This document shows, in pieces, positions 1,488 through 63,512 of a stretch of DNA of 64,000 nt. Origin of the DNA: an uncultured bacterium (lineage in GTDB: Bacteria > Verrucomicrobiota > Kiritimatiellia > RFP12 > UBA1067). Within the stretch, counting starts at the first letter, position 1; the number at the start of each line of letters is the position of its first letter. The position numbers and the translations under genes were made by a program. The stretch is from assembly GCA_902763655.1 (NCBI GenBank), contig CACWSW010000001.1, positions 5,172 through 69,171 on the forward strand. Reading direction: 5' to 3'. The notes below the pieces were generated by a model. The model ran no database searches, had not been told where the DNA came from, and saw nothing but the letters and a program-made list of their open reading frames with translations.

Positions 1488-1636
1488 AGCTTTCCGATCT
1501 TACGGCCTTTCGGCGCCAACAGTATACACTCTCCCATACGGCCAAGCAACATGGCAATTGGCGAAGTGGGAGCCAGACACTAGGCACGAAGGGCCGAAAG
1601 ATGGTAAAATATCCGCACCTCACAAGGATCAATGTC

Positions 1637-2641: not shown

Positions 2642-2651
2642 GGCACGCGCA

Positions 2652-3467: not shown

Positions 3468-3482
3468 TAGAATATTGGCGCC

Positions 3483-16904: not shown

Positions 16905-16981
16905 TGCGACTGTAGCTCAATTGGATAGAGCGTTGGCCTCCGAAGCCGAAGGTTGCTGGTTCGATCCCAGTCAGTCGCACC
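16905..16981 (+). tRNA. tRNA-Arg (anticodon CCG)
   Basis: Manual cloverleaf: acceptor GCGACTG/CAGTCGC, D-stem GCTC/GAGC, anticodon stem TTGGC/GCCGA with loop CTCCGAA, T-arm GCTGG-TTCGATC-CCAGT, discriminator A plus CCA. Confidence 0.8.
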
Positions 16982-16983
16982 AA
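16957..16983. repeat. attL core: 27-bp direct repeat GGTTCGATCCCAGTCAGTCGCACCAAT (3' end of tRNA-Arg)
   Basis: Exact 27/27 match with 63486-63512. Flanking bases differ on both sides. Confidence 0.7.
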
Positions 16984-16997
16984 TAGACAAAGCAAAA

Positions 16998-17043: not shown

Positions 17044-17110
17044 TTATGATACAGAATATGATACAATTCCTGCCAGAGAAAAAGAACGCAATAAGGGAAA
17101 TGAGCGAAAA
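17044..17110. repeat. att-proximal repeat block (ATGATACAGAAT ATGATACAAT ... AACGCAATAAGGGAAATGAGCGAAAA); second copy at 63395-63450
   Basis: 24-bp near-identical segment (1 mismatch) plus a 26-bp related segment in the same order. It lies just inside both prophage ends. Candidate integrase arm-type sites. Confidence 0.45.
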
Positions 17111-18243
17111 TGCTTTATAAAAACAACGGCGGAAAGAACTGGTGGGTGATGTTCCGGGACCCTCGTCGGCCAGGAAAATTCATCCGCCAATCGACCGGCA
17201 CGTCCTCCATCGAGCATGCGCGGTCGATCGAGGAGGCCATGCACCTGTCGATCAAGGGCAAGATAGACGACAAGAAGATGAAATCCATCCTCGACGCAAT
17301 CTTCCCTAGGGAGCGCGAGGGATCCGGTCTGCCGATCGGCCAGCTGTGGGCGACGTACGAGCGGTTCATGTCGATGCGCGATCGCAAGCCGGGCGAACGG
17401 CTCGTAAAGCAGCGGAAGAAAAACCTCGAGGACTTCATCGAATGGACGAAGACAGAATTCCCGGTCACGACGGTCGAGGAGGTGACGTTCGACTGCGCGA
17501 TGGCGTACGCCGAATTCCTGAAGAAGAAGTCGAAGCCGAAGGACAAAAAGCACAAGGCGAAGCTGAAGGACAAGAGCCGGAAGGAATACATCGGAAACCT
17601 GTCCACGATCTGGAAGGCTGCCGAGGCGCTGTACGACGTCCGCAACCCGTGGAAGGATCTCCGTCCGGCCGTGCGCGACGGGCAGCGCCACGCCGCTTTC
17701 TCGCGCGCCCAGGAGCGCGCCGTGCTGGAGGCCGCGAAAGCGAGCGCCGTGCCGCATTGGTACGAGGCGTGCCTAATCGCCCGGTGGACCGGACTCCGTA
17801 AACACGATGTCGTGTTCCTGGAATGGAGCAAGGTGGATTTCGAAAAGGGCGTCATTCGCACGAAGCCGATCAAGACGCAAGGCTACAACATCGAGGTCGA
17901 AGTGCCGATGGTGGCCGTTCTGCGCGACGCCCTGAAGGGCCTGTTCGTGAAGGGCAGGAAGTACGTGCTTCCGGAGTTCGCGAAAGTCTATCCGGGCGAT
18001 CCGGAAGACTGCGCCTTCGCCGGGATCCTGAAGGCCGCCGGCGTGACCGATCCGACGATCACGTTTCACAGTTGGCGGCACACCTTCAGGACACGCCTTG
18101 CGGAGGCCGGAGTCAGCAACGACCTCGCAAAGCGCCTCGGCGGATGGACGCAGGACGCGACCGTGCAACGGTACGACCACGCCGACAAAACGGAGGAGAT
18201 TCGCCAGGCGCTCGAGTCTACTTCTTCTGCGGCTCGTCCTTGA
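17110..18243 (+). CDS. int: tyrosine recombinase / phage integrase
   Basis: 377 aa. C-terminal catalytic region HSWRHTFRTRLAEAGV...LGGWT...VQRYDH (R..HxxR..Y). Immediately adjacent to the tRNA attL. Confidence 0.85.
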   Translation: MLYKNNGGKNWWVMFRDPRRPGKFIRQSTGTSSIEHARSIEEAMHLSIKGKIDDKKMKSILDAIFPREREGSGLPIGQLWATYERFMSMRDRKPGERLVKQRKKNLEDFIEWTKTEFPVTTVEEVTFDCAMAYAEFLKKKSKPKDKKHKAKLKDKSRKEYIGNLSTIWKAAEALYDVRNPWKDLRPAVRDGQRHAAFSRAQERAVLEAAKASAVPHWYEACLIARWTGLRKHDVVFLEWSKVDFEKGVIRTKPIKTQGYNIEVEVPMVAVLRDALKGLFVKGRKYVLPEFAKVYPGDPEDCAFAGILKAAGVTDPTITFHSWRHTFRTRLAEAGVSNDLAKRLGGWTQDATVQRYDHADKTEEIRQALESTSSAARP

Positions 18244-21200
18244 CGCGGTAGCGGTATATCTTCCGCAAGTCGCGCACGACCGAATTGCTGTCGCTCATCC
18301 AGCGACCGGCGGCGTCGAGCATGTTGTCCCAGGTGTCGCCGTCTGAGTCGAATATCGCCTCTAGCAGCTTCGCGCCGTCGTTCACTTGGTTCTTCAGCCA
18401 CGATTCCATCGGCAGCATCGAGGAGCCGCCCTTGATCGAGTAGCCCTTGATGGCACGTTCGAGCGTGTACTTGCAGCAGAAACCGGCGACGAAGAGCGAT
18501 CCGTACGGTCCCAGGAGACACGTGATTATCCAGTCATTCAGCTCGTCTTCCGGCGGTTCCTGTCCGAGACACGCTTTGTACAGTTCCCCCATCCAGAAAT
18601 AAGCTGACGAGAGGATGAAGTGATTAAGGAGGATTGCGCGTCCCAGGCTGCCCCAGCGCTTCACCGAGTCCGGACGCGCGATCACCTCGCGGATCGCTCG
18701 CACTTCGTACTGTAGGTACTGCTGTTGCGTGGAGAGGAACTGGAACATGATGCGCCCGAGCTTGTTGCGCCGCTGGATCGAGGTCTGGTTTTCCATGCGG
18801 CCAGACTGCTGCGTCCGTTCGATGATGCTCCACGTCTCGGCCATGGCGTCGTCCTCGGACATGCCGCGATCCAAGCAGTCGCGGTAGATGCCCTGCCCGA
18901 CGACGAGAGCCGGCACGACGTCGCCCAACTTGGTCGTGATCATCGACTTCTGGAGCATACGCTTCAGCCAGCCCGCGTTCTGCTGGCTGAGCGCGTTGCG
19001 GACGGCCTCGGAGGATCCCAGGTTCCAGCGTGTGCGCCTCTGCTCGGAATCCCATATCTTGCCCATCGCGGCCATACCCTCCGGCGTGAATGCGCTCACC
19101 ATGTACTTTGCCGTGTTGACAAGCCCGATCTCGAAGCCGAACGCCGGGATCGAGGTCGTCTGCTTGGCCATGACGCCGATGTTTCCGCCGAGCGCGCACA
19201 GCGCAGTCCAGCCGCGTATCTGGTCGGAGAAATACTGGACGCCCGCCGTGGATCTGTCGTACGCGCCGTGTCCGGCCAGAATGTCCGTGATAAAGCCCTG
19301 CATGAGGTCGTCCACGGACGCGCCGTGGTTCGCCCTGACGGTCTCGCGGAGTTCGGACCGGCCGAAGATGCCGCGCATTTCCAGTCCCAGCTGCGCGTGG
19401 TGCTTCCACTGCGCGGCCTCTTCCATGCGGGACGCCCACATCGAGAAGATGTCGGCCGACGTGTCGAAGTCGCGCTCGTTCCGGACGCGCGGCGTGAGCG
19501 CCTTTGGGAATATCGTCCAGCCGACACCCTGTCCTTTCTCGAGTCCCTGCGTCTCGAGCATCATCTTGACCGGGAAGTAGTTCGGCAGCTCCGCGTACAC
19601 GCCGATCCCGAAGAGCGAATGGCATACGCCGGAGAGGTCGGAGCGGTTGTTCTCGTACCACTGGCCAAGCCATTTCAGCATGTTCATGTCAGCCGGATCG
19701 AGGAGACGCATTATCTCGGCCGCCTGTCCCTCGCGGTGGTGCTTCACGATGTTGTCGTGGTAGCCACCCTCCCAGACGGTCTTCGTCTGGCCGGGATTCT
19801 CCTCGTCCTCGACCTGAACTTTGCGGCCCTCCTGGAGGAGCGAGACGAGCAGCTGGAGCGCGCGGCCCTTGGTGGGCGTGACGCGCTTTCCGCCGACGAC
19901 GCCCATGTACTGCGTGAAGCGCTCGTCCGGAGCCATCATGTCCTTCATGACGGCGTTGAAGCTCTTGCCGTAGATTCCCTCGACCGCGGAGTGAAAGGCG
20001 TCGTTGTGGCGGCGCTTTTCGGCTTCTGACCTGTCGCCGGCCTTCTGCACCTCGCGGGCGATGTAGTCCACGATGTCCTTCACGGCTGCGGCGTCAGCGT
20101 CGGACGCGTGGCGCATGCAGTCCTGCAAAAGCGATATGAAGCCCATGTGGCCGGTGATGAAGCGGTTCAAGGCGTCCGCCTTGCCGCCCTCGCGGATGGT
20201 CGTGCGCTTCGGATCGGCGAACGCGACGGCCAGCAGGTGCGCGGCCTTCTTCGTGCGGATGTCGCGATCTGACATTTCGCGCACGATGTCGTCCGACTCG
20301 CCGCGCGCGAAGTCCTGCCACCATTGGACGGCGGCCTCTATCTCGCCGACGGGCTTGTAGCGGAGCGCGCCGAACTCCCGCAGGACATTCAGCTTGCGGA
20401 TCGTCTCGACGAACTCGCGGCTCTGGTCGCGGTCGCGCCCGGCGTCCGCGAAATCGACGGAGAGCGCGTCAAGCGTCTCTTGGAGCTGTCGGGCTTCTTC
20501 CGCCGCCGCGTCCGGAGTAAGCCACATCGCGTGGCGCATGTAGCGCGCGCGGAGTTCCGCTTCGGCCGAAACCTTGCGCTTGCCCTCTTCCTTGTCGGGC
20601 TTGAACCGTCCCTGCGCACTAAAGCTCTCCCGCAGGAACAGGTCGAGCTTTTCGCACATCTGCTTCTGCGTGTCGCGGATGCGCTGCGCGTTTATGAGCG
20701 CGCCCAGGAACTCCATCTCGGAGATTAGCCCCTGCACGGTCGGCACAGAGTCGAGCTTTGCAATGCCACGCATGGCCGTCTCGCGGCTGCGGGAGTATGT
20801 GAGGTCGCGGCAAAGCTTCGCGTAGACGCTCTGCGCCGTCTTGCGCAGGAACTGCACGGCCACGAGGTCGCGCCACACGTCGGCGTCCTTCGCAAGTCCG
20901 TGTTCCTTGATCCACTGCCGGCGGGCCAGCTCGGCGACAAAGCGCGCAAGGTGGCGCGGGTTCTCCAGGTTGAGCGCGGATTTCTTCACGGCCTCGGCCA
21001 GCGCGTCGCCCTCGGTGCCTTCGCCGGAGGAATCGCCTTCGGCCTCGAGAGCTTCCTCGCCCTCGCCCATGGCGGCCTCGTTCTCGGCGTCGCGCCCGGC
21101 GGCCGCCTTGCGGTTCTTGCGGTTCTGCTCGTCCACGCCTGTCTGTCGTCCGGACGCGGACACGATGTCGTCCACGACGGCCTTCACCTTGGCGTCGATC

Positions 21201-24200
21201 TCGACGGCCGCCTCTTCCGATTCCTCGGCGGACGCCGCACCTTCCTCGTCGGCCGTTCCCTCTCCCTCGCCGGACGTGCCCTGCGGCGCGTCCTTCTCCG
21301 TGAGAGGGTTGTCCGCAAGGTGCATGATCGTCTCGGAGAGGTTGATGCCGTAGGCGTTCTCGATCGCGCCGGAGTCCAGGCCGGTCTGGACGCGCACGGC
21401 GTCCTCCACGATCTGCGCCTGACGCTCCTCGAGCGCCGTGTTCGCCCTCGCCCCGAACGCGCCCAGGCGTGCGCCCTCGCGGGCTTCCTGACGCATCTCG
21501 CGCCCGAACTGCTCGCGCATCGTGTCGGGCAGGTGCTCGAGGACGAGGGAATCGCTCACGCCGCGCCCGATGTCGTCGCGGATGCGCCTTGCGAGCTTCT
21601 GCGCGCCGGACATGACGCGCTGCGACTCTACGCCGATCTTCGTTGTGTCCCATTCGGGATGCAGCCGGCGCATCATCTTCTGCACCGTTGTCACCTTGAC
21701 GGACCTGTCGGACACCTTGTCCGACTTCCCGAGCGCGATCCTGGCGGCGACGGCGGCGGAAAGCAGTTCCTCGTCGCTCATGCCGCGAAGCTGCGGATAG
21801 ACGAGGCCGGAGCGCGGCGCCTCCGTGGAGAAAAGAGTGCCCTGCGTAGCAGGCCAGCTCTTACCCTCTAGAAGCCCAGGCCGCCCCAGTCGTCCCGCAG
21901 CTCCTGTTCCGTCGGACGCTTCGACCAATCTATCCTCTCCACCGGGTGCCCTGCGGACTTCTCCGTAGGCGGGATCGAGGTAGTTGCCGTCTTCCCAGAT
22001 CGGCTTTTGTCCGATGGTGACGTCGTTTGAGAACTGGTCATAGTAGTCAGCCTCCTTCTTCACTAGATTATATGCGCGCGTAGGATTGTCCTGACACGCA
22101 CGTATCACGACAGGGTTGATCCAGCGGCCTGTGGCGAGCGTCCGCAGGAGCGCGCGTCCGAACGCATGGAGTATCGGGACGCGGTTGTTGTGCAGGTACA
22201 CCGTGTACCCTGCGGCATGCCAGTCCGCGATCTTCTTGCGTAGTCCCTCCGCGTCGTCCCCCAGGACGGGCAGCACGACGTTCTCGCCGCGCCGCGGATC
22301 GCCCTCTGCGCGGTTCTGGATGTCGCGGATCATCTGCTTGTTCAACATCGAGCTTTCGGCGTGGACATAGTTCGCGCCGTTACCGTCGTTGAATCCCGGC
22401 AGCTCCTTCTTGCAGGCGTCGCAGTCTAGGACGCGCGAGCGGTACCACACCGAGAGCGCGTTCGCGAACACCGACGACTTGCCCGCAGCCGGCGGCCCGA
22501 CGATGATGTCGATGCGGAAATCCCTCTGCGTCTCGTAGGACGGGTTCTGGAGCGGGATAGGTGGCAAGTCCGGACGGCCCTCGTTCGCCGCGACTATCAA
22601 CGCCTCCTCCTTTGCCGTGCCGTCCTTGCGCGTTTCCAGCGCCTCGTTGTTTTTGCCGGTGATCGAGTCCGCCATCAGCAAGTCGTATATTTTCCGGTGG
22701 ACGGCAAGGCGTTCCGGCGTCGGGTGAGGCTTGCCGTCCTCGCCGGTCACAAAAGCCGTCGGATCGTCCAGTGCCGAATCCTTGCGGAAGTTCGGAAGGA
22801 CGCCGTTCAGTATCTCGTCGGTCGCCTCGGCGGACGTTATGAGCCGATCAAGCAGCGCTGCGGTTTCTTCCGCAGACAAGTCTCCGGCGTTCAACGCCTC
22901 GTCGATTATTGCATTCAGCTCGCGCCCGATCGGACGCTGGAACTGCTTGGCCCTCGCCCATCGAGTTCCCGTTTCCGTGGACGTGCCGTCGGGCTTCAGG
23001 TAGTCCTTCAGCCCAGGCAGCAGGTCGGTGGCACCGCTTACACCGCTGCGCTCGAGTAGTCCTCTCCGAACATTTCGCAGTAGTGCTTCATCGTTGCGAC
23101 GGAGTCTTGCCGCAGCGAGACGATCTCGGAGGGTGTCAGCTCGTAGCTTGCGGAGTTCGCGGGCTTGCGACTGGGTAAGCTCGGCGACGCCGTTTGCGAT
23201 TCCTGCTTCTTTGAGTTCTTCATCGAGGTTGTTCCCGAATTTAGCATACAACGCCTGCATGGCATCGCTGCTGATTGCTATGGTATCAGAAAACTGGCTG
23301 GCCGTCAACGTGGAAATTGCGACAATTTTTCCGCCGCGCGACTGTATGTACTTGCGCAGTTCGTTCAACGTGCCGCCCTGCGTCACGTGGTCGTCCACGA
23401 GAATGTATTCGGCGCCGCGCTGGACGGGGCCAGAGAACGTAGCCACGCGCATCATGCGCTCTACGGCGTTCGCGCCGGTGTGGTTCGCCCGCACCGTCTG
23501 CACGATCCCGTCTGCGAAGCGAAGCCCTGTGATCCTGTGGATCATGAATGCGTACGCGGCGGGAATCTTGTTGCGTCCCGTTGCCTCTTCGGCGTGGACG
23601 TAGGCGACGATCGCGCGCGGATGCTCTGCGGCGAGCGCGCGAAGCTTCTCCCATTTCGGATTTTTCTTCTTCCCGTCCGTCGCCTCTCCCAGGATGTTCC
23701 GGACAAGCTCGAGCGCGGCACCTTCGCTTCCGGCCTTGGCCCGCGTGTGCAGGTCGAGCCACTTCTGCTTGACGCTGGCGAGCGTGGTCTGGATCATCAC
23801 CTTCGGGAAGTTCGCCGGCCACGGCTGGACGGCGCCCTCGACGGGAATGCCCTGCATGATCTCGCGCTTGCGCATCGCGTCGGTTAGTTCCCTCGAGACG
23901 GAGTAGCGCGCTTCTCCAAGATCGACGCGGCTGGTTCGGCTGTCTGTGAGACGGTTGACCTTCTTGTTGTCAACGATGAGGGGATCGTAACTCCTGACGC
24001 TACCCCATTTCCCCGACGCATCCTGCCAGAGAACGTCCGTCACGTTTCCGTTCTCTATTTGGCGGTATATCGCTTGCTGCGCGGCCATGCCGTAGTCGTC
24101 CATCGACTGGTCGCCGACTACGAACAGGAACGCTCCGCCTGTTGCGCCGCGATAGTCGGCCAGGATGTCCGTGATCCTCTTGTCGTCGGCACCGTCGAAC

Positions 24201-27200
24201 GTTTCCGTCGGGACGTTGGCGACCGACGTTACGAAATTCGCCTTGCTGTCAACGGTTATGAACGTCAGCATCTTGCCGCGTTCGGATGCCATGCGCTGGA
24301 GTCGGGCGTAGAACACGGCGATGTTGTCGAGGCCGAACTTCTCCCCGCTCTCTCTCAACGAGTCATGGAACGCGGCATTGTCCTTTGTTGGCTTCTCGAA
24401 CGGATTGCCATGGAAGGACGCCTCCAAATCCGCTGCGCTCATGCGGCGGATGTTGTAGTCGCCCCATTGGTTCATTTCGGCGTATTGGTCATGGTCGATG
24501 ATGACATGCCCGTCGAGAAAGACGCCCTGCCGGTCGAAGTACGTGCGAAGCTCTCCCGTCACGTTTATGTCCGCCCGCGAAGGGAACACATTCCCGGACG
24601 GGTGGTTGTGGAGAAGCCACACGCCGTCCGGCTTCACCTTGGCGATCATGCGCTCGATCTCGGCGTAGGTGTTCTCGCGCGGCGTGTGCACCGTCGTCGC
24701 GGACGCGCCAGGAAGCCGCGCCGTCACGCCGGTCTGCCAGACAACCTCGCCGTTCCTGGTGAAGATGTAGCGGAAAGTCTCGAAGCACGGGTTCCTGTAC
24801 ACCTGCGCGAGCGCGGCCAGGTCTTTTGCCGTCCTTATGGTCTTTCCTATGAGCGTCGTCCGCGCCTCGCCGTGGAAGTCGCGGTTTATCGAGTTTCCCA
24901 GCTCCGTTCCGCCGATCTGGTCGAGGACGCGCTGCGCCTCGGTCTGCGCGGCGCGGAGGTTCGTCTTCTCGGTCTCGGAAAGCCCCTCGGTCGAGACGGA
25001 GTAGCGCACGTCGGGGTTGCCGGAAAATTCGCCGTTGTTGTCGGTGGCTGACTTTACCTGCGCGCCGCCGTCAAGCGGCACGTAGCTGACGCCTCGCAAA
25101 GTATAGCCCTGCTCGTTTTCCGCTGGGTCGCCGCCCTCGTCGTAGACGATGCCGTCGTACTTGTCGCCGAAATTGTCCTTCAGGAACTCTCCGTCCACGA
25201 CCGACGCCTCTCCCCAATCAAGCGCGCCAGATTTGCCGGTCTGGAATTCGTGGTCGGGATAGGCCTTCTTCAGGTCTGCGAGGCATTTCGGATCGCGGAT
25301 GTCGAACGGACGGCGAATGTCCAGATAGTATGCGCGGACATTGCCATATCTCTTGGCATACTCCTGATCGCCAGTGAAGTACGCCTCGGGCATCACGACG
25401 CCCTTGCCGGTTTCCTGTGCCAGAGGATCGAACGCTGCGCCCCGGTAGACGACAAGCGGCTCTCCGTTGGCGTCTACTATTTTTGAACAATCTTCATTGC
25501 CCGGATTGACGCCCGAAAGGAAATATGATATCTTACGGTCCGCATGAGGCTTACGGCCCGTGCTTCCAGCGCCAAGGCTACCGGTCTGACTTCCGGCAAG
25601 ATTGGCGCTTGCATTATATACGAAGACGTCCGACACTTCGGCAGCATGCACCAGATTCTTGTCCGCCACCGTAGAGGTTTTGCTCTCCCGCACGGTGAAG
25701 TGTACGAAAAACTCTCCTTCGGCGCTCTTGAACTTGTTGACGTAATGGTGATAGTTCTCGATGTTAGAGGTGTGGTCCTTGTGTCCTTCGACCGGGTTTT
25801 CCTTTTCGCTCCAGCATCTGATCGCGCTCTCGAAGAGTTTCTTGTATGCAGCGACATACTTGCGCTGATAGACCATCTTTCCCGCCGTGTTCCCCGGGAA
25901 ACGCACCTTGCGCCCGTCACGGCCGTTGGTGACAATGCCGAAGTCCACAAACGCCTCGGCTATTGCGTCCTTGTTCGCCAAGGGCTGTACGCTTGAAATG
26001 TCTACCGTGGCGATTCCATCCAATATGCCTGACGCTTCTATGTCGAACCAGCGTTTCGTTATCTCAGCCTTCTCCCAGTCGCCGAACCACTTCTTAAACG
26101 TGGGCGTCCTGACCATCACCCACTGGCTTTCGTTGAGCCGCGTAGGTTTCCCGTTCGGAGCCTTCATCCAGCCGCGCTTCTTCGTGCCGTCCTCGTTTGT
26201 GTAGCGGGCGACAACTTCGTCATATTCGAGTTGCGCCTGCGGCGACAGGCTGAACCGCGCGCCGCCCTCGCCGGCGGCCCTCTGCGCGGCCATGACCTCG
26301 GCGCGGGTGGCTGGCGTCCCGCCGAACATGTCCTCCGTCTCGGTGTTGACTGCGCGGGCGTTCTTGATGTAGTCCGCCAGGTAGCCGGAAATGAGGTCGA
26401 TGACACGCTTCTTCCCCGCCTCGCTCTCCACGTCCTCGCGGTCGAACGAGCGCAGCTGTTCGGATTTTGCGAACAGGTCGCCCAGGATTCGCGCCTCGTC
26501 CGACGGCGCGCGAAACATGTCGCCCTGCGACATGAACGCCTCCCATGAGAGGCCTCGCTTGCGCGTCCCGTCCTTGGCCGTCTCGCGCCAGTCGTGGCGC
26601 GTCTTGCCTTTCTCGGTTCTGGCCGTCTCGTCCTTGTCGCGCCATTCCGTGAAGAGCTGCAAGGCCTCCGCGAGCGGAGCGCGCAGGTCGTAGGCTGGCT
26701 TCGCGTCCGCGAGCGCCATCAGCTCAGGCGTCATCTTCATCAGCGCGCGCAGCTCGCTCTGCATGTCGAGACGTCCGGCGTTCGACATGATCTTGTTCAA
26801 GAGCGCGTTGTTCCCCTCGCCGCCCAGCAGCACGGCGAGCGCGGCGTTCTGGATGCGCGTCTGCCCCTCTTCGGTGAGCGATCCGTCTTCCGCGACCATG
26901 CCCTGCGCGCCGGTCTCCTGGCGGAACTTCCCGATGGCGTCGCCGCTCTTCGTCTCGTCGATCCGTCCGTCGGCCCGGAACTCCATGCGCGGCAGGAGGT
27001 TGTTGTCGATCAGGATCTTCGCGTCGTTCGACGCCTGTTCGCGGACGTTGAAGCCCCGGTTCTGCGACTCGTTCGCGAGCCGCACGACCTCGTGGACGTC
27101 CGCCTTTCCGTCCGGAGACTCGATGCGCTCGAGCACGAACACCAGAAGCGGCTTCTTCACGTCGTCGCCGATCTCGATGCCGCGCCTGGCTGCATCCTCG

Positions 27201-30200
27201 CGCACGAACTTCTCGAGCTCGCCCGCTGTCCCTTTCGCATACGCGAGCCTGGCACCGTTCACGCGGTGGTTACCGATGATGACGTTTGAGTTATTCAAAA
27301 GCCACACAATCCCGTTATTTGCTATCGGCTGCACGGTCCCGATCTGGAGCGGATCGGGATTCGCGCCGATCTTCTCGACGAGCGCGCGGCTTTCCTCGCT
27401 CTTGTCGTCGCGGTTCTGGTTGCCTCGGTCGTGGTAGTCGGCGTCGGTCGAAGTGATTACGCCCGTCTCAACGTCGCGCACTTCCAGCCGTCCGACGAGC
27501 TTCACTGGGCTGTTCGGAAGTCCGACCTTGTAGTACCGCTGGTTCGGCGTGGCGGCGTCCGCAGGGTGTTCTGCGGTGGCGGCCTGTACGGGCGCCGCTG
27601 TCGGCGCGGGAGTGACGGTAGGAGCAGGACTCGCAGGAGCTGGGGACGGCTCTTCCTCTTTGATTTCGGCCTGTGCCTCGGCCTCCGCCTCCGCGCGGTC
27701 GGCGTCCGTCACTTCAACCGGCATTGAGGATTTCGGCGTGGCCGTGGGTTCCGCCGTCTGCTGCGGCACTTTGCGAAGCTCCACGCCCAGGGTTCCGCTT
27801 CCAAGTTCGCCGCGCAGGATTCTGTCGTAGAGTCCTTTCAGCTGGTACGGCTTGCCGGTCTTGGGATCCGTCACCTCGTCGGAAGGGCCGAACTGACCGA
27901 AGAATTTGATGATCTTCCCAGCCCAGGAGTCGAGCATCTTGTCGAAGCGGGAGGAAACGGCGTGGGAAACGTAGTGGCCGCTCGCGTAGCGTTCCATTTC
28001 GTGCGCCATGCGCTCGTCGAGCTTGCGTTCCCAGTTGTCCGCCGTCACGTCGATGCCGAGCGTCTTTGCGAGCTGCTGCACGTCCGCGTCGGCCAGAGTC
28101 CCCCGGACGAACTGCCAGAGCGAGTGGAAGGTTTCATGGCGCACGGTCGCCTGTGTCGCCGCCGGGCCGTAGCCGATGTCGGCGATGTGACCGTTGGCAA
28201 GGCGTATCACGCTGTCGGCGTTCACGCGCACCTTTTGCCCCTTGGAATCGGTCAGCTCGAACACGCCGCTTCCCATTCTCGCGGCGTTGGACGCGAAAAG
28301 CGCCTCCTGATACCGCTGGGCGTCGGAGAGCATTTCCCACCTTATGCCGTCGCCCAGCTCCTCGTGCCGCTCGTTGAAAGAGTCGCCGAACGCGCTGCCG
28401 ATCTTGGCGTTCTCGTCCGCCTCTGCACGCAGCTCGTCCGAGAAGTCGCCCACGCGGTAGGCGATCGTCTTCTCCGTGCCATCGTCCATCCTGACGCGAC
28501 CGGAGTAGATGCCGTTTTCCGGATCGGACGCGAAGCTGCCATCGACATAGCCGGGAAGGACGGTCTTGATCGTCGCCTCGTCGATGTCCGCGAGCGACAT
28601 GTTCAAGGACGTCCACGCCCGCGCCTGCGGAGAGAACGCCGTCGCCTCGGCCTCGGTCTGGAGGTACTGCGCCATCACTTCGGCCGTCTTCACGTCCACG
28701 CCGGCGGCGTCCGCGATCTCCTGAACGGCGTCGCCGGTCTGCGGATCGCGCCAGGCGCGCCGTGCCGCCGTGATCGCCTCCTCGAAGCGGTGCGGGTTCT
28801 CGGCCTCGTCGCCGTCCTCCTCGCCCTGCCAGTGCTTCTCGACGGCGGCGCGGACGTTCACGGCCTGCTGGATCACGTCAACGAGTCCGGCGTCGTAGTC
28901 GAATGCCTTGGAAGGGTCTTCGCCTCTCTGGTCGAGGCTGAGCATCGTGTCCTCGGCTGTTGCACCGGCGCGACGGTTCGCGTGGCGCGTCATGGCGTTG
29001 TGGATGTGCTGCCGCCGCGTCATGTTGCCGATGGTCGTCACGCCGAATCCGAGCGACGACGGCACCATGTCGGCAGCCGTGTCGATGAAAGTTGCGTAGT
29101 CGTTCGGAAGGGTGGCGGCGAAGCTGTCCCAGAGCGCCTTGGCCTCGTTCGCCAGCGTGGCGTTGCCGTCCTTGCGGAGTTCCTGGCAGAGCTTGTCGAA
29201 CGCCTTGCCGTGTTCGATCGCCATCTGCTGGAGAGGTTCTTCGACAGCGCCCTCGGTGAGCGTGACCTTCACGCCCTCGGTGAAGCCTTTCGAGACGCGG
29301 TTCGCGAGCCACTTCCTGAAGCCCGCCGCGCCGTCCGTCTTGATCGCCTGTGCCATCGCCGCGAACGTGAGCGACTTGATCTGCGCGGGCGCAAGCGACG
29401 ATTCGAGTCCGGGCACGTAGAGCTGTTCGATCTTGGCGTTTATGAGTCCGATCGCCGCAGCGGTCAAGATGGATTCCTCACGGCTGATGCCCGCCGCGTC
29501 CGCATTGGCGATGTACTCCGACGCGAACGCGCTGAACGCCGACGCTTCGCCGGCGGCCCACATTCCGGCGCCCGCCGCGTCCTTCCACTTCGCCGCCTTG
29601 ACGACGTTCGGGATCTCGCGGAGCGCCGCCGTGTACTGATCGACCGCCGCAAGCTGCCGCCTCATGGCGATGGCGGATGCAAACTCGCTGACCTTCTTCG
29701 CGCCCTTGCCCGCCTTGACCGCTCCCTCCACGTCCGCGAGCCAGCGCGTACGGGATGCCTCGGCGGCCGCCTTCGCGAGCGTAAGCCCGCCCTCGGCGAC
29801 TTCCTTCTGCAACTTGGCTCGGACGATCGTGGCCTGTGCGCCCTTGGCCAGCTTGCCGCCCTTGCCGATCATCGAGTAGGGAATGAACCAGTGCATGTTC
29901 TCCGCGAGTCCCTGGAACGCTTCGCCAAAAAGCGAGTCGGCTTCAGGAAGGTTCTGCTTCATCGCCTGTTCGGCGCGCGCGATCGCGTCCCATCCCTTGA
30001 AGAACGCCTTGCGCTCGTCCTCGTCCATCGCGCACTTCGCGTATGTCCACATGGCCGCGTCTCTGGCCATTTCGCCAGTGTCCGTGACGAGTCCGACGAC
30101 AGACTGCTGGAAGCCGTAAAGCCCCAGCTGGAAGCGGTTCATCCAAGTGTCGTCCGTGAAGTCCGTCTGGATTCCGAGGATGCGTCCCTTCTTCTGGTCG

Positions 30201-31060
30201 CCGCGCATCAGCGAGAACGCGGCGTACACGCGGTCGCGCTCGTCCTCCGGCAGTCCTTCGATGTTCGCCGCGTCCGGCGTTCCGTCGCTGAACGACTTGG
30301 CGAGGAGGTAGCCCGCGCGGTCGCTCAGGCCGTGGGCGAACTGGAGGAACGTCGCGAGCGTCTGGCGGCGGGAGAGCTTCGTGTCGTAGTCGGCGATCAC
30401 GTCGGCGCGGTAGGCGGCCTTCTTCTCCTCGTCCATCGAGTCGTAGAACGAGTTGCGGATCGCGTCTTCGCGCCATTCCCTGTCGATCTCCTGTCCCTTG
30501 CGCTGTTCCTCGGTCCATGGAATCGCGAATGCCGACATGTCGCCGGCGGCCATGGCGACAAGCGGATTCGTGCCGCGTTCGCCTTTCATCTTTGACTTGA
30601 CCATGTTCCCGGTCGTCTCGTGCTCGAGCGCGTACTTGAACTTGGCCTCGTCGTCCATCTGCCGCCACTTGGTGTACTCCGGGTCTTCGATCAGCGTGTA
30701 GTCGCCCTTGACGAACTTCCGCAGCATGTCGATGTTCGCGCACGGATCCTTCGACGCGCGCTTGCCGAACGCGACGGATCCGTCCTCGTCCGGAAGGCCA
30801 AACATTCCTTCCGTGACGCTCTGGTAGAGCGCGGACGCGCCCGCGTCGTCGAGCTTGGAGACGTCCGTGGAGAAGAGCATGTCGGCGCTGGCCTTGAATC
30901 TGGCCTTGCGCTCATTCTTCGTACGGTCGTCGAAGTCGTCCGTGCCGCCGGCGAACGACGGCGGGCGGACGAACGTGCCGCCGCCCGTCTTCCGCTCGCC
31001 CATCCCGAGGAAATCAGTCACGTCACTTGGCAGTCTTTCCGTCTTCTCTTCTTCCGCCAT
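18218..31060 (-). CDS. giant multidomain 'polyvalent' virion protein (~4280 aa) with JAB/RadC, PRTase, P-loop kinase, HExxH and ParB-like motifs
   Basis: Single uninterrupted 12.9-kb reading frame. The ATG at 31060 has a GGAG RBS. Recognisable motifs are listed in the findings. Sits at the end of the structural module, like ejection proteins. Confidence 0.75.
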   Translation of the reverse strand: MAEEEKTERLPSDVTDFLGMGERKTGGGTFVRPPSFAGGTDDFDDRTKNERKARFKASADMLFSTDVSKLDDAGASALYQSVTEGMFGLPDEDGSVAFGKRASKDPCANIDMLRKFVKGDYTLIEDPEYTKWRQMDDEAKFKYALEHETTGNMVKSKMKGERGTNPLVAMAAGDMSAFAIPWTEEQRKGQEIDREWREDAIRNSFYDSMDEEKKAAYRADVIADYDTKLSRRQTLATFLQFAHGLSDRAGYLLAKSFSDGTPDAANIEGLPEDERDRVYAAFSLMRGDQKKGRILGIQTDFTDDTWMNRFQLGLYGFQQSVVGLVTDTGEMARDAAMWTYAKCAMDEDERKAFFKGWDAIARAEQAMKQNLPEADSLFGEAFQGLAENMHWFIPYSMIGKGGKLAKGAQATIVRAKLQKEVAEGGLTLAKAAAEASRTRWLADVEGAVKAGKGAKKVSEFASAIAMRRQLAAVDQYTAALREIPNVVKAAKWKDAAGAGMWAAGEASAFSAFASEYIANADAAGISREESILTAAAIGLINAKIEQLYVPGLESSLAPAQIKSLTFAAMAQAIKTDGAAGFRKWLANRVSKGFTEGVKVTLTEGAVEEPLQQMAIEHGKAFDKLCQELRKDGNATLANEAKALWDSFAATLPNDYATFIDTAADMVPSSLGFGVTTIGNMTRRQHIHNAMTRHANRRAGATAEDTMLSLDQRGEDPSKAFDYDAGLVDVIQQAVNVRAAVEKHWQGEEDGDEAENPHRFEEAITAARRAWRDPQTGDAVQEIADAAGVDVKTAEVMAQYLQTEAEATAFSPQARAWTSLNMSLADIDEATIKTVLPGYVDGSFASDPENGIYSGRVRMDDGTEKTIAYRVGDFSDELRAEADENAKIGSAFGDSFNERHEELGDGIRWEMLSDAQRYQEALFASNAARMGSGVFELTDSKGQKVRVNADSVIRLANGHIADIGYGPAATQATVRHETFHSLWQFVRGTLADADVQQLAKTLGIDVTADNWERKLDERMAHEMERYASGHYVSHAVSSRFDKMLDSWAGKIIKFFGQFGPSDEVTDPKTGKPYQLKGLYDRILRGELGSGTLGVELRKVPQQTAEPTATPKSSMPVEVTDADRAEAEAEAQAEIKEEEPSPAPASPAPTVTPAPTAAPVQAATAEHPADAATPNQRYYKVGLPNSPVKLVGRLEVRDVETGVITSTDADYHDRGNQNRDDKSEESRALVEKIGANPDPLQIGTVQPIANNGIVWLLNNSNVIIGNHRVNGARLAYAKGTAGELEKFVREDAARRGIEIGDDVKKPLLVFVLERIESPDGKADVHEVVRLANESQNRGFNVREQASNDAKILIDNNLLPRMEFRADGRIDETKSGDAIGKFRQETGAQGMVAEDGSLTEEGQTRIQNAALAVLLGGEGNNALLNKIMSNAGRLDMQSELRALMKMTPELMALADAKPAYDLRAPLAEALQLFTEWRDKDETARTEKGKTRHDWRETAKDGTRKRGLSWEAFMSQGDMFRAPSDEARILGDLFAKSEQLRSFDREDVESEAGKKRVIDLISGYLADYIKNARAVNTETEDMFGGTPATRAEVMAAQRAAGEGGARFSLSPQAQLEYDEVVARYTNEDGTKKRGWMKAPNGKPTRLNESQWVMVRTPTFKKWFGDWEKAEITKRWFDIEASGILDGIATVDISSVQPLANKDAIAEAFVDFGIVTNGRDGRKVRFPGNTAGKMVYQRKYVAAYKKLFESAIRCWSEKENPVEGHKDHTSNIENYHHYVNKFKSAEGEFFVHFTVRESKTSTVADKNLVHAAEVSDVFVYNASANLAGSQTGSLGAGSTGRKPHADRKISYFLSGVNPGNEDCSKIVDANGEPLVVYRGAAFDPLAQETGKGVVMPEAYFTGDQEYAKRYGNVRAYYLDIRRPFDIRDPKCLADLKKAYPDHEFQTGKSGALDWGEASVVDGEFLKDNFGDKYDGIVYDEGGDPAENEQGYTLRGVSYVPLDGGAQVKSATDNNGEFSGNPDVRYSVSTEGLSETEKTNLRAAQTEAQRVLDQIGGTELGNSINRDFHGEARTTLIGKTIRTAKDLAALAQVYRNPCFETFRYIFTRNGEVVWQTGVTARLPGASATTVHTPRENTYAEIERMIAKVKPDGVWLLHNHPSGNVFPSRADINVTGELRTYFDRQGVFLDGHVIIDHDQYAEMNQWGDYNIRRMSAADLEASFHGNPFEKPTKDNAAFHDSLRESGEKFGLDNIAVFYARLQRMASERGKMLTFITVDSKANFVTSVANVPTETFDGADDKRITDILADYRGATGGAFLFVVGDQSMDDYGMAAQQAIYRQIENGNVTDVLWQDASGKWGSVRSYDPLIVDNKKVNRLTDSRTSRVDLGEARYSVSRELTDAMRKREIMQGIPVEGAVQPWPANFPKVMIQTTLASVKQKWLDLHTRAKAGSEGAALELVRNILGEATDGKKKNPKWEKLRALAAEHPRAIVAYVHAEEATGRNKIPAAYAFMIHRITGLRFADGIVQTVRANHTGANAVERMMRVATFSGPVQRGAEYILVDDHVTQGGTLNELRKYIQSRGGKIVAISTLTASQFSDTIAISSDAMQALYAKFGNNLDEELKEAGIANGVAELTQSQARELRKLRADTLRDRLAAARLRRNDEALLRNVRRGLLERSGVSGATDLLPGLKDYLKPDGTSTETGTRWARAKQFQRPIGRELNAIIDEALNAGDLSAEETAALLDRLITSAEATDEILNGVLPNFRKDSALDDPTAFVTGEDGKPHPTPERLAVHRKIYDLLMADSITGKNNEALETRKDGTAKEEALIVAANEGRPDLPPIPLQNPSYETQRDFRIDIIVGPPAAGKSSVFANALSVWYRSRVLDCDACKKELPGFNDGNGANYVHAESSMLNKQMIRDIQNRAEGDPRRGENVVLPVLGDDAEGLRKKIADWHAAGYTVYLHNNRVPILHAFGRALLRTLATGRWINPVVIRACQDNPTRAYNLVKKEADYYDQFSNDVTIGQKPIWEDGNYLDPAYGEVRRAPGGEDRLVEASDGTGAAGRLGRPGLLEGKSWPATQGTLFSTEAPRSGLVYPQLRGMSDEELLSAAVAARIALGKSDKVSDRSVKVTTVQKMMRRLHPEWDTTKIGVESQRVMSGAQKLARRIRDDIGRGVSDSLVLEHLPDTMREQFGREMRQEAREGARLGAFGARANTALEERQAQIVEDAVRVQTGLDSGAIENAYGINLSETIMHLADNPLTEKDAPQGTSGEGEGTADEEGAASAEESEEAAVEIDAKVKAVVDDIVSASGRQTGVDEQNRKNRKAAAGRDAENEAAMGEGEEALEAEGDSSGEGTEGDALAEAVKKSALNLENPRHLARFVAELARRQWIKEHGLAKDADVWRDLVAVQFLRKTAQSVYAKLCRDLTYSRSRETAMRGIAKLDSVPTVQGLISEMEFLGALINAQRIRDTQKQMCEKLDLFLRESFSAQGRFKPDKEEGKRKVSAEAELRARYMRHAMWLTPDAAAEEARQLQETLDALSVDFADAGRDRDQSREFVETIRKLNVLREFGALRYKPVGEIEAAVQWWQDFARGESDDIVREMSDRDIRTKKAAHLLAVAFADPKRTTIREGGKADALNRFITGHMGFISLLQDCMRHASDADAAAVKDIVDYIAREVQKAGDRSEAEKRRHNDAFHSAVEGIYGKSFNAVMKDMMAPDERFTQYMGVVGGKRVTPTKGRALQLLVSLLQEGRKVQVEDEENPGQTKTVWEGGYHDNIVKHHREGQAAEIMRLLDPADMNMLKWLGQWYENNRSDLSGVCHSLFGIGVYAELPNYFPVKMMLETQGLEKGQGVGWTIFPKALTPRVRNERDFDTSADIFSMWASRMEEAAQWKHHAQLGLEMRGIFGRSELRETVRANHGASVDDLMQGFITDILAGHGAYDRSTAGVQYFSDQIRGWTALCALGGNIGVMAKQTTSIPAFGFEIGLVNTAKYMVSAFTPEGMAAMGKIWDSEQRRTRWNLGSSEAVRNALSQQNAGWLKRMLQKSMITTKLGDVVPALVVGQGIYRDCLDRGMSEDDAMAETWSIIERTQQSGRMENQTSIQRRNKLGRIMFQFLSTQQQYLQYEVRAIREVIARPDSVKRWGSLGRAILLNHFILSSAYFWMGELYKACLGQEPPEDELNDWIITCLLGPYGSLFVAGFCCKYTLERAIKGYSIKGGSSMLPMESWLKNQVNDGAKLLEAIFDSDGDTWDNMLDAAGRWMSDSNSVVRDLRKIYRYRVKDEPQKK

Positions 31061-32894
31061 CGTCTTTACTCCGTTCTTCCATCTGATCTGCTTCCCATCT
31101 CGTACGCGTCTCGCGCTGCATGTCCATGACGTTGCGGACGGTCGCGTCGCGGTTCTTGTCAAGCCCGCCCTTCATCCACCCGGTCTTCAGGCGTGTTATC
31201 TCGCGCTCGACGACGCCCTCGCGGTTCATGTCCGGCCCCAGGGCGCGGAGCGTCCTGAGAAGCGTGTCGCCGTAGGCCAGCAGGTCGGAAGCCGAAATGG
31301 TTTCCGGCTTTTCCTGGGCGAGCATGTCGGCCAGTGTAATCGGATCGGCAAACATCTTCTCGAAGAATCCAAACTGTCTCGGAGCGGATCGATCGGGCGC
31401 ATAGTAGCCCGTCGTGTCGTTTCCCGCGTCCTTCCGCGCGGTCGCGGTCGGCTCGCCGCCCTTGTCGAGGTCAGCGCTGTAGCCGAACGCCAGGTAGAAC
31501 TTGCGCATGGCGTTCGCCTCCTGGTCGGAGAGCTGTCCGGAAAGGCGCGTCTCGAAGCTCCGCATGAAGGAAGGGGAGAGCTGCTTGCCGAGCGAAAGCG
31601 CGCGGAACTTCCGCCAGATGGCGGCCTGCGCGTCGTTCGCGTCGTCCTGCGAAAGCGATCCGTCCATTTTCAGGAGGTCGAGCGTCGCAAGCGAGCGCGC
31701 AAGGTTCTCCTCGTTTCCCTTGATCGCGTCGGCGGACGCCTTCTCCTTGGCCTTGGACGCGGCCGTGCGCATTTCGCTCGCGGCGTCCATGTATGCCATG
31801 GCCCGCTTGGGGTCTGTCATGCGCAGCGTCGGGTCGCGGCCCATCGCTTCGTAGGCCTCGGCCCAAAACTCCTGCGGCACGTCGCGAAGCTTCAGCTCGC
31901 GTTCCGTGAAGTCCCTGCCGACGGCCTGGCGCGCCTCGCGCTCTTCGGCCTCCTTCTGGGCGAGAAACAGACGCTTCTCCTTCTTCACCTCTCCGATGAG
32001 CGTCTTGCGGTACTCCCCGTCCACCGTACGCGATCCGCCGGGAAGGTTGTCGGCTATGAGGTCGGGAAGGGCGTCCTTCAAGCCGCCCTTGACGGCCTCC
32101 TCCACCTTGTCGAAGTCCTCTGCTGACGTGCATCCCTGTAGCGAGTTGTCGATGAAGTCGGCGGCGAGCTGGACGGCCAGCGCCTCGCGGTTCGCCTTTC
32201 GCGTCTCTGGCGTGGCGAGCGTGAGCGTGTCCACGCGTTCCTGCTGGGCAAAGATGTCGGGCAGGACCTCGGTGCGTCCGTTCTTCCAGATCATGCGCTG
32301 CGTGGCGAGGTTCCCCTTGGCGGAGTCGAGTTCCATGCGCCGGTACTCTCTGGCCTGATGGTCGGCGAGTCGCGATACGGTGGCGCGCCGGTAGTTCGCG
32401 AGCTTGTCCATCGTGCGCTCGCGCACACGGTCGTTCGCGTCGATGGAGTCGCCGATCTTCCTGAACGTGTCCGCGAAGGCCTTGTCCCATTCGTCCACGA
32501 GGGTCTTTGTGCCCTCGCCGGTGCGTAGGTAGAAGCCGCGTTTCTGGCCTTCGAGGTGCTTCCGGTCGGGCGCGTTCCAGTCGGTGATCTCACGGTCGTC
32601 GCGGCCCATCTTCTCCATGTTGTCCATCATGGCGTTCGCGTAGTCGTCAACCTTGCGGTCCTCCTCGCGCTGCTGGATGGCGCCTATCGCGCCTGCGACC
32701 GCTCCGAGCGCGCGCACGCCCGCACCGATGGCGTCGCCCATCATCATTCCGGGGCGTGCCATGTGCGGCGCGTATATGCCGGGGCGATGGTGCTGGACGG
32801 TGCCGATGTCCGTGCTTGTCGCGCCGTGTGCCATGCTCGTGGAACCAAGGTTTCCGAGCCGTTCGCTTCTCTGCGTTATGTTGATCACGCCCAT
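31023..32894 (-). CDS. phage internal virion/structural protein, unknown function
   Basis: 623 aa, charged, coiled-coil-rich. Lies between the tail genes and the giant ORF. Confidence 0.4.
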   Translation of the reverse strand: MGVINITQRSERLGNLGSTSMAHGATSTDIGTVQHHRPGIYAPHMARPGMMMGDAIGAGVRALGAVAGAIGAIQQREEDRKVDDYANAMMDNMEKMGRDDREITDWNAPDRKHLEGQKRGFYLRTGEGTKTLVDEWDKAFADTFRKIGDSIDANDRVRERTMDKLANYRRATVSRLADHQAREYRRMELDSAKGNLATQRMIWKNGRTEVLPDIFAQQERVDTLTLATPETRKANREALAVQLAADFIDNSLQGCTSAEDFDKVEEAVKGGLKDALPDLIADNLPGGSRTVDGEYRKTLIGEVKKEKRLFLAQKEAEEREARQAVGRDFTERELKLRDVPQEFWAEAYEAMGRDPTLRMTDPKRAMAYMDAASEMRTAASKAKEKASADAIKGNEENLARSLATLDLLKMDGSLSQDDANDAQAAIWRKFRALSLGKQLSPSFMRSFETRLSGQLSDQEANAMRKFYLAFGYSADLDKGGEPTATARKDAGNDTTGYYAPDRSAPRQFGFFEKMFADPITLADMLAQEKPETISASDLLAYGDTLLRTLRALGPDMNREGVVEREITRLKTGWMKGGLDKNRDATVRNVMDMQRETRTRWEADQMEERSKDDGGRREDGKTAK

Positions 32895-32910: not shown

Positions 32911-33744
32911 TCACCAGAACGCCCAACCCGATCCGCCGCCGGAGCCTCCCGATCCGCTTGATCCGCCGGAGCTGCCTGTGCTGCCGTATTTCGAGTCCCA
33001 TGACGTGTAGGCGCTTGCGCCGCCGCCAAGCAGTCCGGAGATGAGCGCCAGCCGCCCGGCCTTCTTTGTCGCCCGCGCCGCCTTTCTTCCGTAGGCAAGC
33101 GTCTCCGCCGCAGACTGTCTCGCGTTCTCCAGCGTGAGCGCCGCAGCCTTTCGCGCGTCGGCGGCCGACTCGGCGTCGCTCTGCGCCTTGAACACGAGGT
33201 TGTTTGCGCCCTGGAGCGAGTTGGCTGCGTTCCGTTGCTGGGTGCGCTTCTCCTCCTCGAACGTCCACTGGTTCATCTTGGCGTTATCGAGGATGGTGCT
33301 GATGTCGGCCTGCCCCTCCGTGGCGGAGGACTGGATGATGTAGCCGAACGTGTCGTTCGGGTTCGCGTCCACGGCGAAGCCGTTGCCGGCGAACTGGGCG
33401 TACTGCTGGCCGATCTCCTGCGCGAGGATGCGCGATCGGCGTGCGGCCTCGCGCTCGCCCTTCAGCTGCTCGATGTTCGCCTTCTCCTGCGCGATCTCGC
33501 CCTGCCGCAGCTCCTCGTCGGCATGAAACTTCTCCTTGTTGGCCTCCAGCATGTCCATGAGGGACCGTCGGTCAAGCGCACGCGCCTCGGCGTTCTGCGC
33601 CTCCGCCGCGGCGGCGGCCTCTCGCTGTATCTGCTGCGCCTGTATCTGCGACTGCTGCCGGATGAGCTTCGCCTCCTCGCCCGAGTTGATGTACGACGTT
33701 ATGCCGGAGGCGACGCTGTTGACCGCTGCTGCTATGAATGACAT
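32911..33744 (-). CDS. phage structural protein with Gly/Ser-rich C-terminus
   Basis: 277 aa. Q/A/E-rich coiled-coil N-terminus and a GSSGGSSGSGGSGGGSGW tail. Confidence 0.4.
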   Translation of the reverse strand: MSFIAAAVNSVASGITSYINSGEEAKLIRQQSQIQAQQIQREAAAAAEAQNAEARALDRRSLMDMLEANKEKFHADEELRQGEIAQEKANIEQLKGEREAARRSRILAQEIGQQYAQFAGNGFAVDANPNDTFGYIIQSSATEGQADISTILDNAKMNQWTFEEEKRTQQRNAANSLQGANNLVFKAQSDAESAADARKAAALTLENARQSAAETLAYGRKAARATKKAGRLALISGLLGGGASAYTSWDSKYGSTGSSGGSSGSGGSGGGSGWAFW

Positions 33745-55988: not shown

Positions 55989-56003
55989 GCCTTGCTCCTT
56001 TCC

Positions 56004-62661: not shown

Positions 62662-62681
62662 TCATGCCTCCCATCTTCGGA

Positions 62682-63485: not shown

Positions 63486-63512
63486 GGTTCGATCCCAGTC
63501 AGTCGCACCAAT
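63486..63512. repeat. attR core: 27-bp direct repeat GGTTCGATCCCAGTCAGTCGCACCAAT
   Basis: Exact copy of 16957-16983. Only the tRNA 3' portion is present here, so this is not a second tRNA. Confidence 0.7.

Follow-up and report, generated by a model that had tools for sequence, protein, structure and literature searches.

What does a phage do with a protein of more than 4,000 residues? The question is raised by one gene on contig CACWSW010000001.1 of an uncultured bacterium of the Kiritimatiellia (assembly GCA_902763655.1). The stretch analysed, 64,000 nt long (positions 5,172 to 69,171 of the contig), is called the window here, and nucleotide positions are those of the window. It contains an intact prophage, 27.6% of which is taken up by a single gene that encodes a string of enzyme domains held between two conserved frames. 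Residue numbers are counted throughout from the ATG at 31060. The gene lies last in the structural module, and by analogy with the podoviruses its product is probably packaged and ejected as the protein of the gp16 slot, delivering its enzyme cassettes at the start of infection.

A polyvalent protein

Does the giant protein belong to a known class? Polyvalent proteins, in the sense of Iyer et al. 2017 (PMC5512222), carry unrelated enzyme domains in one chain, among them a zincin metallopeptidase, ddrB-ParB, ART-PolyVal, RadC, phosphoribosyltransferase (PRTase), zeta kinase and LPD3, and are encoded at a late-gene position. In the window, one frame of 4,280 codons combines a ParB-like domain, an ADP-ribosyltransferase (ART), a JAB domain, a PRTase, a zeta kinase and an HExxH motif. 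ART-PolyVal (PF18760) and ddrB-ParB (PF18763), domains of the class itself, score above the Pfam cut-off, with LPD3 just under it (Table 1), and the gene stands among late, virion genes at the end of the structural module of an intact prophage. Domain content and location support the assignment of the giant protein to the polyvalent class.

The original prediction, read from the letters and a list of open reading frames without database searches, had proposed a polyvalent multi-effector protein on the strength of five motifs. All five are there: HETFH of the putative zincin, the ddrB-type ParB region, HNHPSG of the RadC-type domain, the PRTase motif ILVDDHVTQGGT, and GPPAAGKS of the kinase. 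Profile searches recovered ddrB-ParB, RadC, Zeta_toxin and the PRTase (through phrog_22413) and added the ART-PolyVal and LPD3 domains that the prediction had missed; the HExxH region has no Pfam match but is invariant in 11 relatives. ART-PolyVal, ddrB-ParB, LPD3, RadC, zeta and PRTase domains are all published components of the class, and PRTase and zeta domains were already noted in Verrucomicrobial elements (PMC5512222). The roles proposed in 2017 for such cassettes are those of a nucleoside triphosphate (NTP)-regulated nuclease, ADP-ribosylation of host proteins, nucleic-acid processing, nucleotide synthesis or sensing, and phosphorylation of cell-wall precursors (PMC5512222).

There are also differences from the published class. 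No MuF head-protein domain was detected in the giant protein, whereas a close relative carries MuF_C, a domain described as PBECR, of RNase fold (Iyer et al., PMC5512222). In addition, a C-terminal module (C-module) of ~1,150 aa and an N-terminal module (N-module) of ~760 aa match no Pfam LPD model.

Frames, cassettes and family

Comparison with eight relatives divides the protein into a conserved N-frame (aa 1-1605), a conserved C-frame that begins at aa 3059-3088 and, between the two, a variable middle of swappable enzyme cassettes. The exchanges are clear-cut. One relative (P0020) is without exactly aa 1606-2014, i.e. the LPD3+ART cassette; another (P0019) has a different sequence in place of aa 1606-2344; a third (L004) has an added MuF_C domain and a further segment of ~485 aa, and lacks the zeta cassette. 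GC content at third codon positions (GC3) is 0.71-0.82 in the cassettes vs 0.85-0.87 in the frames, as expected if cassettes arrived later, from a lower-GC source. The LPD3+ART cassette itself (window 24995-26245) has a GC content of 0.567 and a GC3 of 0.71, against a GC3 of 0.86-0.87 for the conserved frames (stretch compared, 18221-20920).

Within the N-frame, which is itself conserved in an alignment of 11 divergent relatives, H975, E976 and H979 of the HExxH motif are invariant, and E1016, downstream of HETFH, is nearly so. An AlphaFold2 model of the N-frame places strands 844-869 and 933-947 ahead of a helix at 975-986, at a pLDDT of only 51. In the variable middle, a conserved stretch, VRTPxFKxWFGDWE (aa 1630-1666), precedes LPD3. 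The PRTase has, over aa 2513-2604, a weak NCBIfam match (E 3.7e-5, far below cut-off) to XopC/Rsp1239, a family of type III effectors; this hints that a PRTase of this type serves elsewhere as a secreted effector too.

Are the two frames peculiar to this prophage? When the last 901 aa were used in a word-index search, only 16 proteins came up, including stand-alone versions of ~1,475 aa, one of which carries a PRTase ahead of the C-module. A HMMER scan with a profile of the C-terminal ~1,150 aa found 1,267 cluster representatives (clusters defined at 50% identity), 319 of them at E <= 1e-30. In most of the long matches among the best 150 of these 1,267, the C-module closes a protein of 2,000-5,642 aa at its very C-terminal end; it is also found as stand-alone proteins of ~1,200-1,480 aa. 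The window protein is thus of ordinary size for its family, and the earlier description of it as unusually large has to be given up, as relatives reach 5,642 aa and Burkholderia podophages carry virion proteins of 4,515-4,602 aa. In the same way, the N- and C-termini that had matched nothing recognisable prove to be conserved frames of a large family, not unique sequence.

The array between the frames differs from member to member. A Pfam census of 11 divergent relatives counts ART-PolyVal and ddrB-ParB seven times each, RadC five times and LPD3 three times; the rarer domains are PBECR5 and PRTase (two each), LPD23 and LPD1 (one each). The distant relatives are all from metagenomes.

The gp16 slot and the C-module

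What does the position of the gene indicate? In the window the order of genes is a nozzle-like protein, a 248-aa protein, a gp14-like protein of 277 aa, a 623-aa protein, the giant protein and the integrase. On the contig of a distant relative of 5,642 aa the order is 978 aa, 165 aa, 212 aa (Pfam PF24072, T7_gp14), 662 aa, giant protein and integrase. The 277-aa window protein and the T7_gp14 protein of this relative share 47% identity (E 2e-26), and the N-termini of the 623-aa and 662-aa proteins match (E 4e-8). In podoviruses the gp14-gp15-gp16 operon ends in the large ejection protein gp16 (PMC8954989). By gene order, the identity of the gp14-like protein and the 623/662-aa match, the giant gene is last in the structural module and occupies the slot of gp16. 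The original prediction had placed an ejection-type protein at this spot, and the nozzle-like, T7-gp14-like and gp15-position proteins that precede it agree with that placement; the homologues that it had thought worth searching for exist, in 1,267 clusters, and their synteny is seen in the gene order around the 5,642-aa relative. Its tail fibre does not survive: for the 1,587-aa upstream protein this identity was dropped in favour of a nozzle or tail-tubular-B protein on account of the match to phrog_376.

The overlap of the 623-aa gene with the start of the giant gene (window 31023-31060) has a similar counterpart of 35 nt in two relatives (L010, L011), which suggests coupled translation of the two genes.

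What can be said of the C-module itself? It has no match in Pfam, PHROG, PADLOC or PDB, and a tblastn search for it in cultured phages, against 50,697 phage records, gave none either; the middle region gave weak single-domain matches only. A PDB search with the giant protein as a single sequence returned weak RadC and PRTase matches only, and a PDB search with the family profile returned nothing. The AlphaFold2 model of the C-module, made from a 15-sequence alignment, is all-helical, with a mean pLDDT of 61.5 and values >80 over much of aa 3370-3820. Foldseek found no match for it in PDB (best E 0.25) and 49 matches at E <= 1e-3 in BFVD. Most of these targets are the second or third segment of proteins that BFVD splits into chunks; those with names are from uncultured phages and bear the labels ART-PolyVal, LPD or MuF_C, and one target, from the podovirus Tenacibaculum phage Gundel_1, is labelled a 'structural protein'. 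Close to the C-terminus are two hydrophobic helices, called by a Kyte-Doolittle scan only, and the last 15 residues form a basic tail whose net charge averages +2.5 over 114 members of the family.

In these respects the giant protein is like the gp16-type proteins of T7, P22 and epsilon15. It shares with them the slot at the end of the run of nozzle, gp14-like and gp15-like genes and, in an all-helical module, hydrophobic helices and a basic tail towards the C-terminus; the likeness does not amount to homology. For homologues of gp16, both a basic C-terminus and putative membrane helices have been reported (PMC8954989). Unlike them, the giant protein is three to seven times longer and carries an effector array.

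The junction motif

Do the cassettes have defined borders? The motif R-[FYHW]-S-[VILMF] is found at the end of the N-frame, at the end of the LPD3+ART cassette and once more in the array (Table 1); a stricter form of the pattern is expected by chance at only 0.05 instances. The homology block of the N-frame stops within a few residues of RFSL in five relatives, and homology blocks break at the motif. Among 102 members of >= 2,000 aa there are 263 instances vs 31 expected, an 8-fold enrichment. Its density per 1,000 aa is highest in the variable array (2.1), lower in the N-frame (0.41) and lowest in the C-frame (0.10). The motif stands just before the C-module in 32 of 93 members; in the window protein this junction has decayed to LFST (aa 3076).

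The motif may represent a processing site. That it is a mere tail of the ART domain was ruled out: an ART tail precedes just 15 of the 270 instances. Neither 'linker' nor 'processing site' is used in the main text of Iyer et al. 2017 (PMC5512222), and the junction motif thus appears not to be described there.

Proposed packaging, ejection and delivery

How might such a protein function? Encoded by a temperate podovirus of the T7/epsilon15 type, the polyvalent protein would be synthesised late in infection, packaged in the capsid together with the gp14-like and gp15-position proteins, and expelled through the tail upon infection. The helical C-module, with its two hydrophobic helices and basic tail, would anchor or guide the polypeptide at the cell envelope. 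The cassettes, i.e. the ParB-type NTPase/nuclease, ADP-ribosyltransferase, RadC/JAB, PRTase and zeta-type kinase, would enter the new host with the first DNA, where they might dampen its defences or condition the cell. By cutting at the R-[FYHW]-S-[VILMF] junctions, the invariant zincin of the N-frame would free the cassettes. What the sequences show directly are the ORF, its domains, the synteny, the family, the exchange of cassettes and the enrichment of the motif; that the protein is packaged and ejected, what its C-module does and that the chain is cut are steps that we infer.

Self-processing has been proposed for the zincins of polyvalent proteins (Iyer et al., PMC5512222), a proposal to which the invariant HExxH and the junction motif here give concrete form; cleavage by the zincin at this motif is nevertheless a tentative suggestion. 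Similarly speculative is a broader idea, in which these are phage 'polyproteins': a chassis of zincin N-frame and membrane-directed C-frame would hold an exchangeable string of effectors that is cut by the zincin after ejection, and the junctions would be the seams at which phages swap cassettes.

Are there precedents for giant virion proteins of this kind? Among them are Bcep22 gp75 and JC1 gp69 (4,515-4,602 aa), also from temperate podoviruses, in which the giant gene closes the structural module and accounts for >20% of the genome; their domain content differs from that of the giant protein. Mass spectrometry of virions detected JC1 gp69 (4,515 aa) with 51 unique peptides (PMC9144972), and Bcep22 gp75 is its closest homologue. 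Homology of the window protein to Bcep22 gp75 was considered and rejected, as there was no blastp or profile match, even with a 114-sequence C-module profile and filters off. Another likeness is to gp47 of phi24B, a 933W-type Stx podovirus, which is a polyvalent protein with LPD domains (2,811 aa in the preprint, 2,807 aa in GenBank), abundant in virions by mass spectrometry and a proposed ejection protein. Homology to it was rejected as well: the C-module was undetected, and only a weak match of the zincin region around HExxH was found (E 0.006). The N4 virion RNA polymerase and P1 DdrB are likewise large, carried in the capsid and injected, and both have a zincin domain. Unlike the N4 protein, the giant protein has no RNA polymerase module that could be found; P1 differs in being a myovirus, with its proteins encoded by separate genes.

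Several points weigh against packaging, ejection and delivery as set out above. The C-module has no sequence or fold (Foldseek) match to T7 gp16 or gp15, and its model is of moderate quality only (pLDDT 61.5). Searches of the giant protein turned up neither a lytic transglycosylase (Pfam, PHROG) nor a MuF head-anchor domain; an N-terminal lytic transglycosylase is specific to T7 among gp16-type proteins, not universal. The experimental precedents are analogues, not relatives, because homology to Bcep22 gp75 is absent and that to phi24B is limited to the weak zincin match. Several copies of a ~470-kDa protein would be a heavy load for the capsid. In the ART domain the catalytic His of strand 1 is replaced by Arg (VVYRGA), as in the close relatives P0022 and L004, while 21 other ARTs of the family have His; the H-Y-D catalytic triad is not matched at the strand-1 His, the position that the comparison covered, and to judge from this substitution the Arg variant may be inactive or altered in its active site. 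As for cleavage, there is no motif between the PRTase and the Zeta domain, so junctions without a motif exist, and, instead of a cleavage site, the motif could mark a structural junction or a scar left by recombination.

Might the giant protein be cargo of the capsid and nothing else? It would then be a DarB-like anti-restriction or effector load with no part in the DNA conduit; the smaller internal virion proteins would form the conduit and the frames would serve packaging. P1 DarB and DdrB and the giant proteins of Bcep22 and JC1 have been described as anti-restriction factors carried in the virion, the conserved N-frame contains a ddrB-type ParB domain, and some relatives carry a DPPYY methylase motif; the undetectable homology to T7 gp16 also fits. 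The giant protein itself, however, has neither the methyltransferase nor the helicase domain of the DarB type (Pfam scans), nor homology to Bcep22 gp75. Moreover, no other large protein of the module is fit for the gp16 role, the order of gp14-like, gp15-position and giant genes is retained in distant relatives, and the C-terminal hydrophobic helices and basic tail are conserved. We consider pure cargo unlikely, and ejection through the gp16 slot the probable course.

The prophage and its host

In what kind of element does the gene reside? The exact att repeats at tRNA-Arg, with host genes outside them, show that the prophage spans 46.5 kb. To the left of attL are host genes for an aldose epimerase and queuosine synthesis and a GH5 gene; the ORF to the right of attR, with the N-terminus MKKVHFTKMHGAGNDFVLIDD, is read as DapF-like from its sequence. 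Between 62.6 kb and 18.2 kb every phage gene is on the minus strand. In the order of transcription, a beta clamp, a PcfJ-like protein and a primase come before the small and large terminase, followed by portal, protease/scaffold, capsid, a 525-aa protein with weak tail or tail-fibre PHROG matches, a tail-tubular-A-like protein, the 1,587-aa nozzle-like protein and the internal virion proteins. The portal is of the T7 type (PF12236, E 1.5e-81) and the capsid of the epsilon15 type (PF20911, E 3e-56). That the gene sits in a prophage, as had been proposed, is borne out by the tRNA-Arg, the integrase, the 27-nt att repeats, this portal and capsid, and the genes for internal virion proteins directly upstream.

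Homologue names place the host in the Kiritimatiellae. Related loci are in bins of Kiritimatiellae, Lentisphaeraceae and Verrucomicrobia from ruminant and other animal guts, and these metagenome-assembled genomes (MAGs) agree with the earlier guess of a host of the Planctomycetes-Verrucomicrobia-Chlamydiae (PVC) type. Close relatives sit on IMG/VR viral contigs of 43-48 kb.

Could the protein be made by the prophage for the benefit of the lysogen, for example as a toxin aimed at rivals or an exclusion factor, and not be packaged at all? Hosts may capture polyvalent proteins for use against incoming elements (Iyer et al., PMC5512222). The gene adjoins attL and the integrase, where genes for lysogenic conversion are commonly located, and two loci (L007, L008) resemble remnants that keep only the C-module and integrase. 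Yet the gene points the same way as the late structural operon, it shares 38 nt with the virion gene upstream of it, the same gene is present on the 43-48-kb viral contigs, and the domain scans gave no secretion signal or secretion-system genes. A weapon expressed by the lysogen is thus quite improbable.

Other features of the prophage may be mentioned. It carries its own DNA polymerase III beta-clamp gene (window 60362-61471) and a gene for a 1,094-aa primase/helicase-like protein (window 52789-56073); no DNA polymerase gene was seen among the window ORFs scanned, a scan that covered part of the ORFs only. Three exact copies of ATGTGCGCACACCC, with the palindrome GTGCGCAC inside, are at window 62681-62694, 62754-62767 and 63173-63186, where 0.03 would be expected by chance. 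They flank a small minus-strand ORF beside attR and are probably operator sites of the lysogeny switch of the prophage.

Table 1. Features of the giant gene and its surroundings (window positions; aa, residues of the giant protein)
Feature	Residues	Window position	Strand	Remarks
Giant polyvalent-protein gene	1-4280	18218..31060	-	4,280 aa from ATG 31060; open frame reaches upstream to TTG 31162
N-module	1-760	28781..31060	-	Mostly helical, no Pfam match, family-conserved; separate ORF in L004
Zincin-like metallopeptidase region	761-1120	27701..28780	-	HETFH aa 975-979 (window 28124-28138)
Pro/Ala/Thr linker	1121-1160			
ddrB-like ParB domain	1210-1307	27140..27433	-	PF18763, E 3e-10; 37.5-40.9 bits, cut-off 27.6
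RFSL	1602-1605	26246..26257	-	End of conserved N-frame
LPD3 domain	1708-1794	25679..25939	-	E 6e-6; 26.8 bits, just under cut-off 27
ART-PolyVal ADP-ribosyltransferase domain	1863-2012	25025..25474	-	PF18760, E 2e-12; 45.6-48.7 bits, cut-off 31.2
RYSV	2019-2022	24995..25006	-	End of LPD3+ART cassette
RadC-type JAB domain	2135-2196	24473..24658	-	HNHPSG...S..D, HNHPSG at aa 2151; E 1e-9
RYSV	2385-2388	23897..23908	-	Punctuation motif
Phosphoribosyltransferase domain	2437-2656	23093..23752	-	Pfam weak, E 6e-4; phrog_22413, E 2e-44
Zeta-toxin-like P-loop kinase domain	2847-3005	22046..22522	-	Zeta_toxin, E 2e-6; Walker A GPPAAGKS at aa 2855
Conserved C-terminal module	~3060-4280	18221..21883	-	All-helical model, no Pfam or PDB match
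Two hydrophobic helices	4142-4160 and 4177-4195	18476..18637	-	Conserved in 114 family members
623-aa protein at gp15 position		31023..32894	-	3' end overlaps giant-gene start by 38 nt
277-aa internal virion protein, T7-gp14-like		32911..33744	-	phrog_418
248-aa internal virion protein		33732..34478	-	Weak match to phrog_308
1,587-aa nozzle / tail-tubular-B-like protein		34274..39037	-	phrog_376, E 9e-85
tRNA-Arg(CCG)		16906-16982		
attL, 3' end of tRNA-Arg(CCG)		16958..16984	+	Last 25 nt of tRNA plus two more
attR		63486..63512	+	Exact 27-nt repeat of attL
Tyrosine integrase		17110..18243	+	Convergent with giant gene

Integrity of the reading frame

Is the giant gene one gene? The minus-strand frame is open from 31162, the first TTG, to the stop at 18218-18220, a length of 4,314 codons. 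The first ATG is at 31060, with GGAG 8 nt ahead of it, and the N-terminus that results, MAEEEKTERLPSDV, is kept in relatives (P0019 begins MTENEKTATLPSDV, P0020 begins MEETESKVLPSD); for these two reasons 18218-31060 is taken as the gene. From base composition, the probability of zero stops over 4,314 codons is ~1e-55, and GC at codon positions 1/2/3 is 0.63/0.44/0.83, typical of coding sequence. Single frames of 3,800-4,436+ codons are present in six PVC MAG loci and of 3,567-4,533+ codons in six IMG/VR viral contigs. The giant ORF is genuine and no assembly artefact; the earlier statement that 12.9 kb of uninterrupted frame cannot be chance was correct, and these twelve genomes and contigs answer its concern over an artefact.

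In one relative, L004, the giant region is in three frames, of 749, 2,951 and 833 aa, so fission of the gene appears to occur, as an exception. A chance fusion of three genes, a decaying frame or an assembly chimera, to which this relative and the many metagenome contigs that end inside the giant gene might point, is hardly credible in the face of twelve independent single frames, dozens of family representatives of 3,500-5,600 aa and coding-type GC3 throughout, contig breaks being expected where strains differ in cassettes.

Some related loci are irregular in themselves. L004 (1-12502), a 91%-identical relative with the extra MuF_C/PBECR domain and without the zeta cassette, has its three ORFs by what could be real gene fission or sequencing frameshifts. 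In L007 (1-400) and L008 (1-300), homology to the giant gene begins abruptly within the end of the zeta domain, and immediately before it are unrelated, stop-rich sequence and the contig end; each may be a truncated prophage remnant or an assembly-breaking insertion.

Significance

What does the locus add to the polyvalent proteins already described? New to the published account are its placement in the gp16 slot, how large the family is and how uniformly its members are laid out, the fact that no model covers the frames, and the junction motif. The window presents an intact example of a polyvalent protein in its exact setting, with complete att sites, a T7-type structural module and the gp16 slot, and does so in a host from a poorly studied gut PVC lineage. 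The family comprises >1,200 clusters, with members that are often 4,000-5,600 aa and take up about a quarter or more of the phage genome, and its conserved frames have no Pfam model. The anatomy of frames, cassettes and junctions offers a handle on two old proposals, the injection of polyvalent proteins and their processing by the zincin, and the variable arrays are a source from which new anti-defence domains could be mined.

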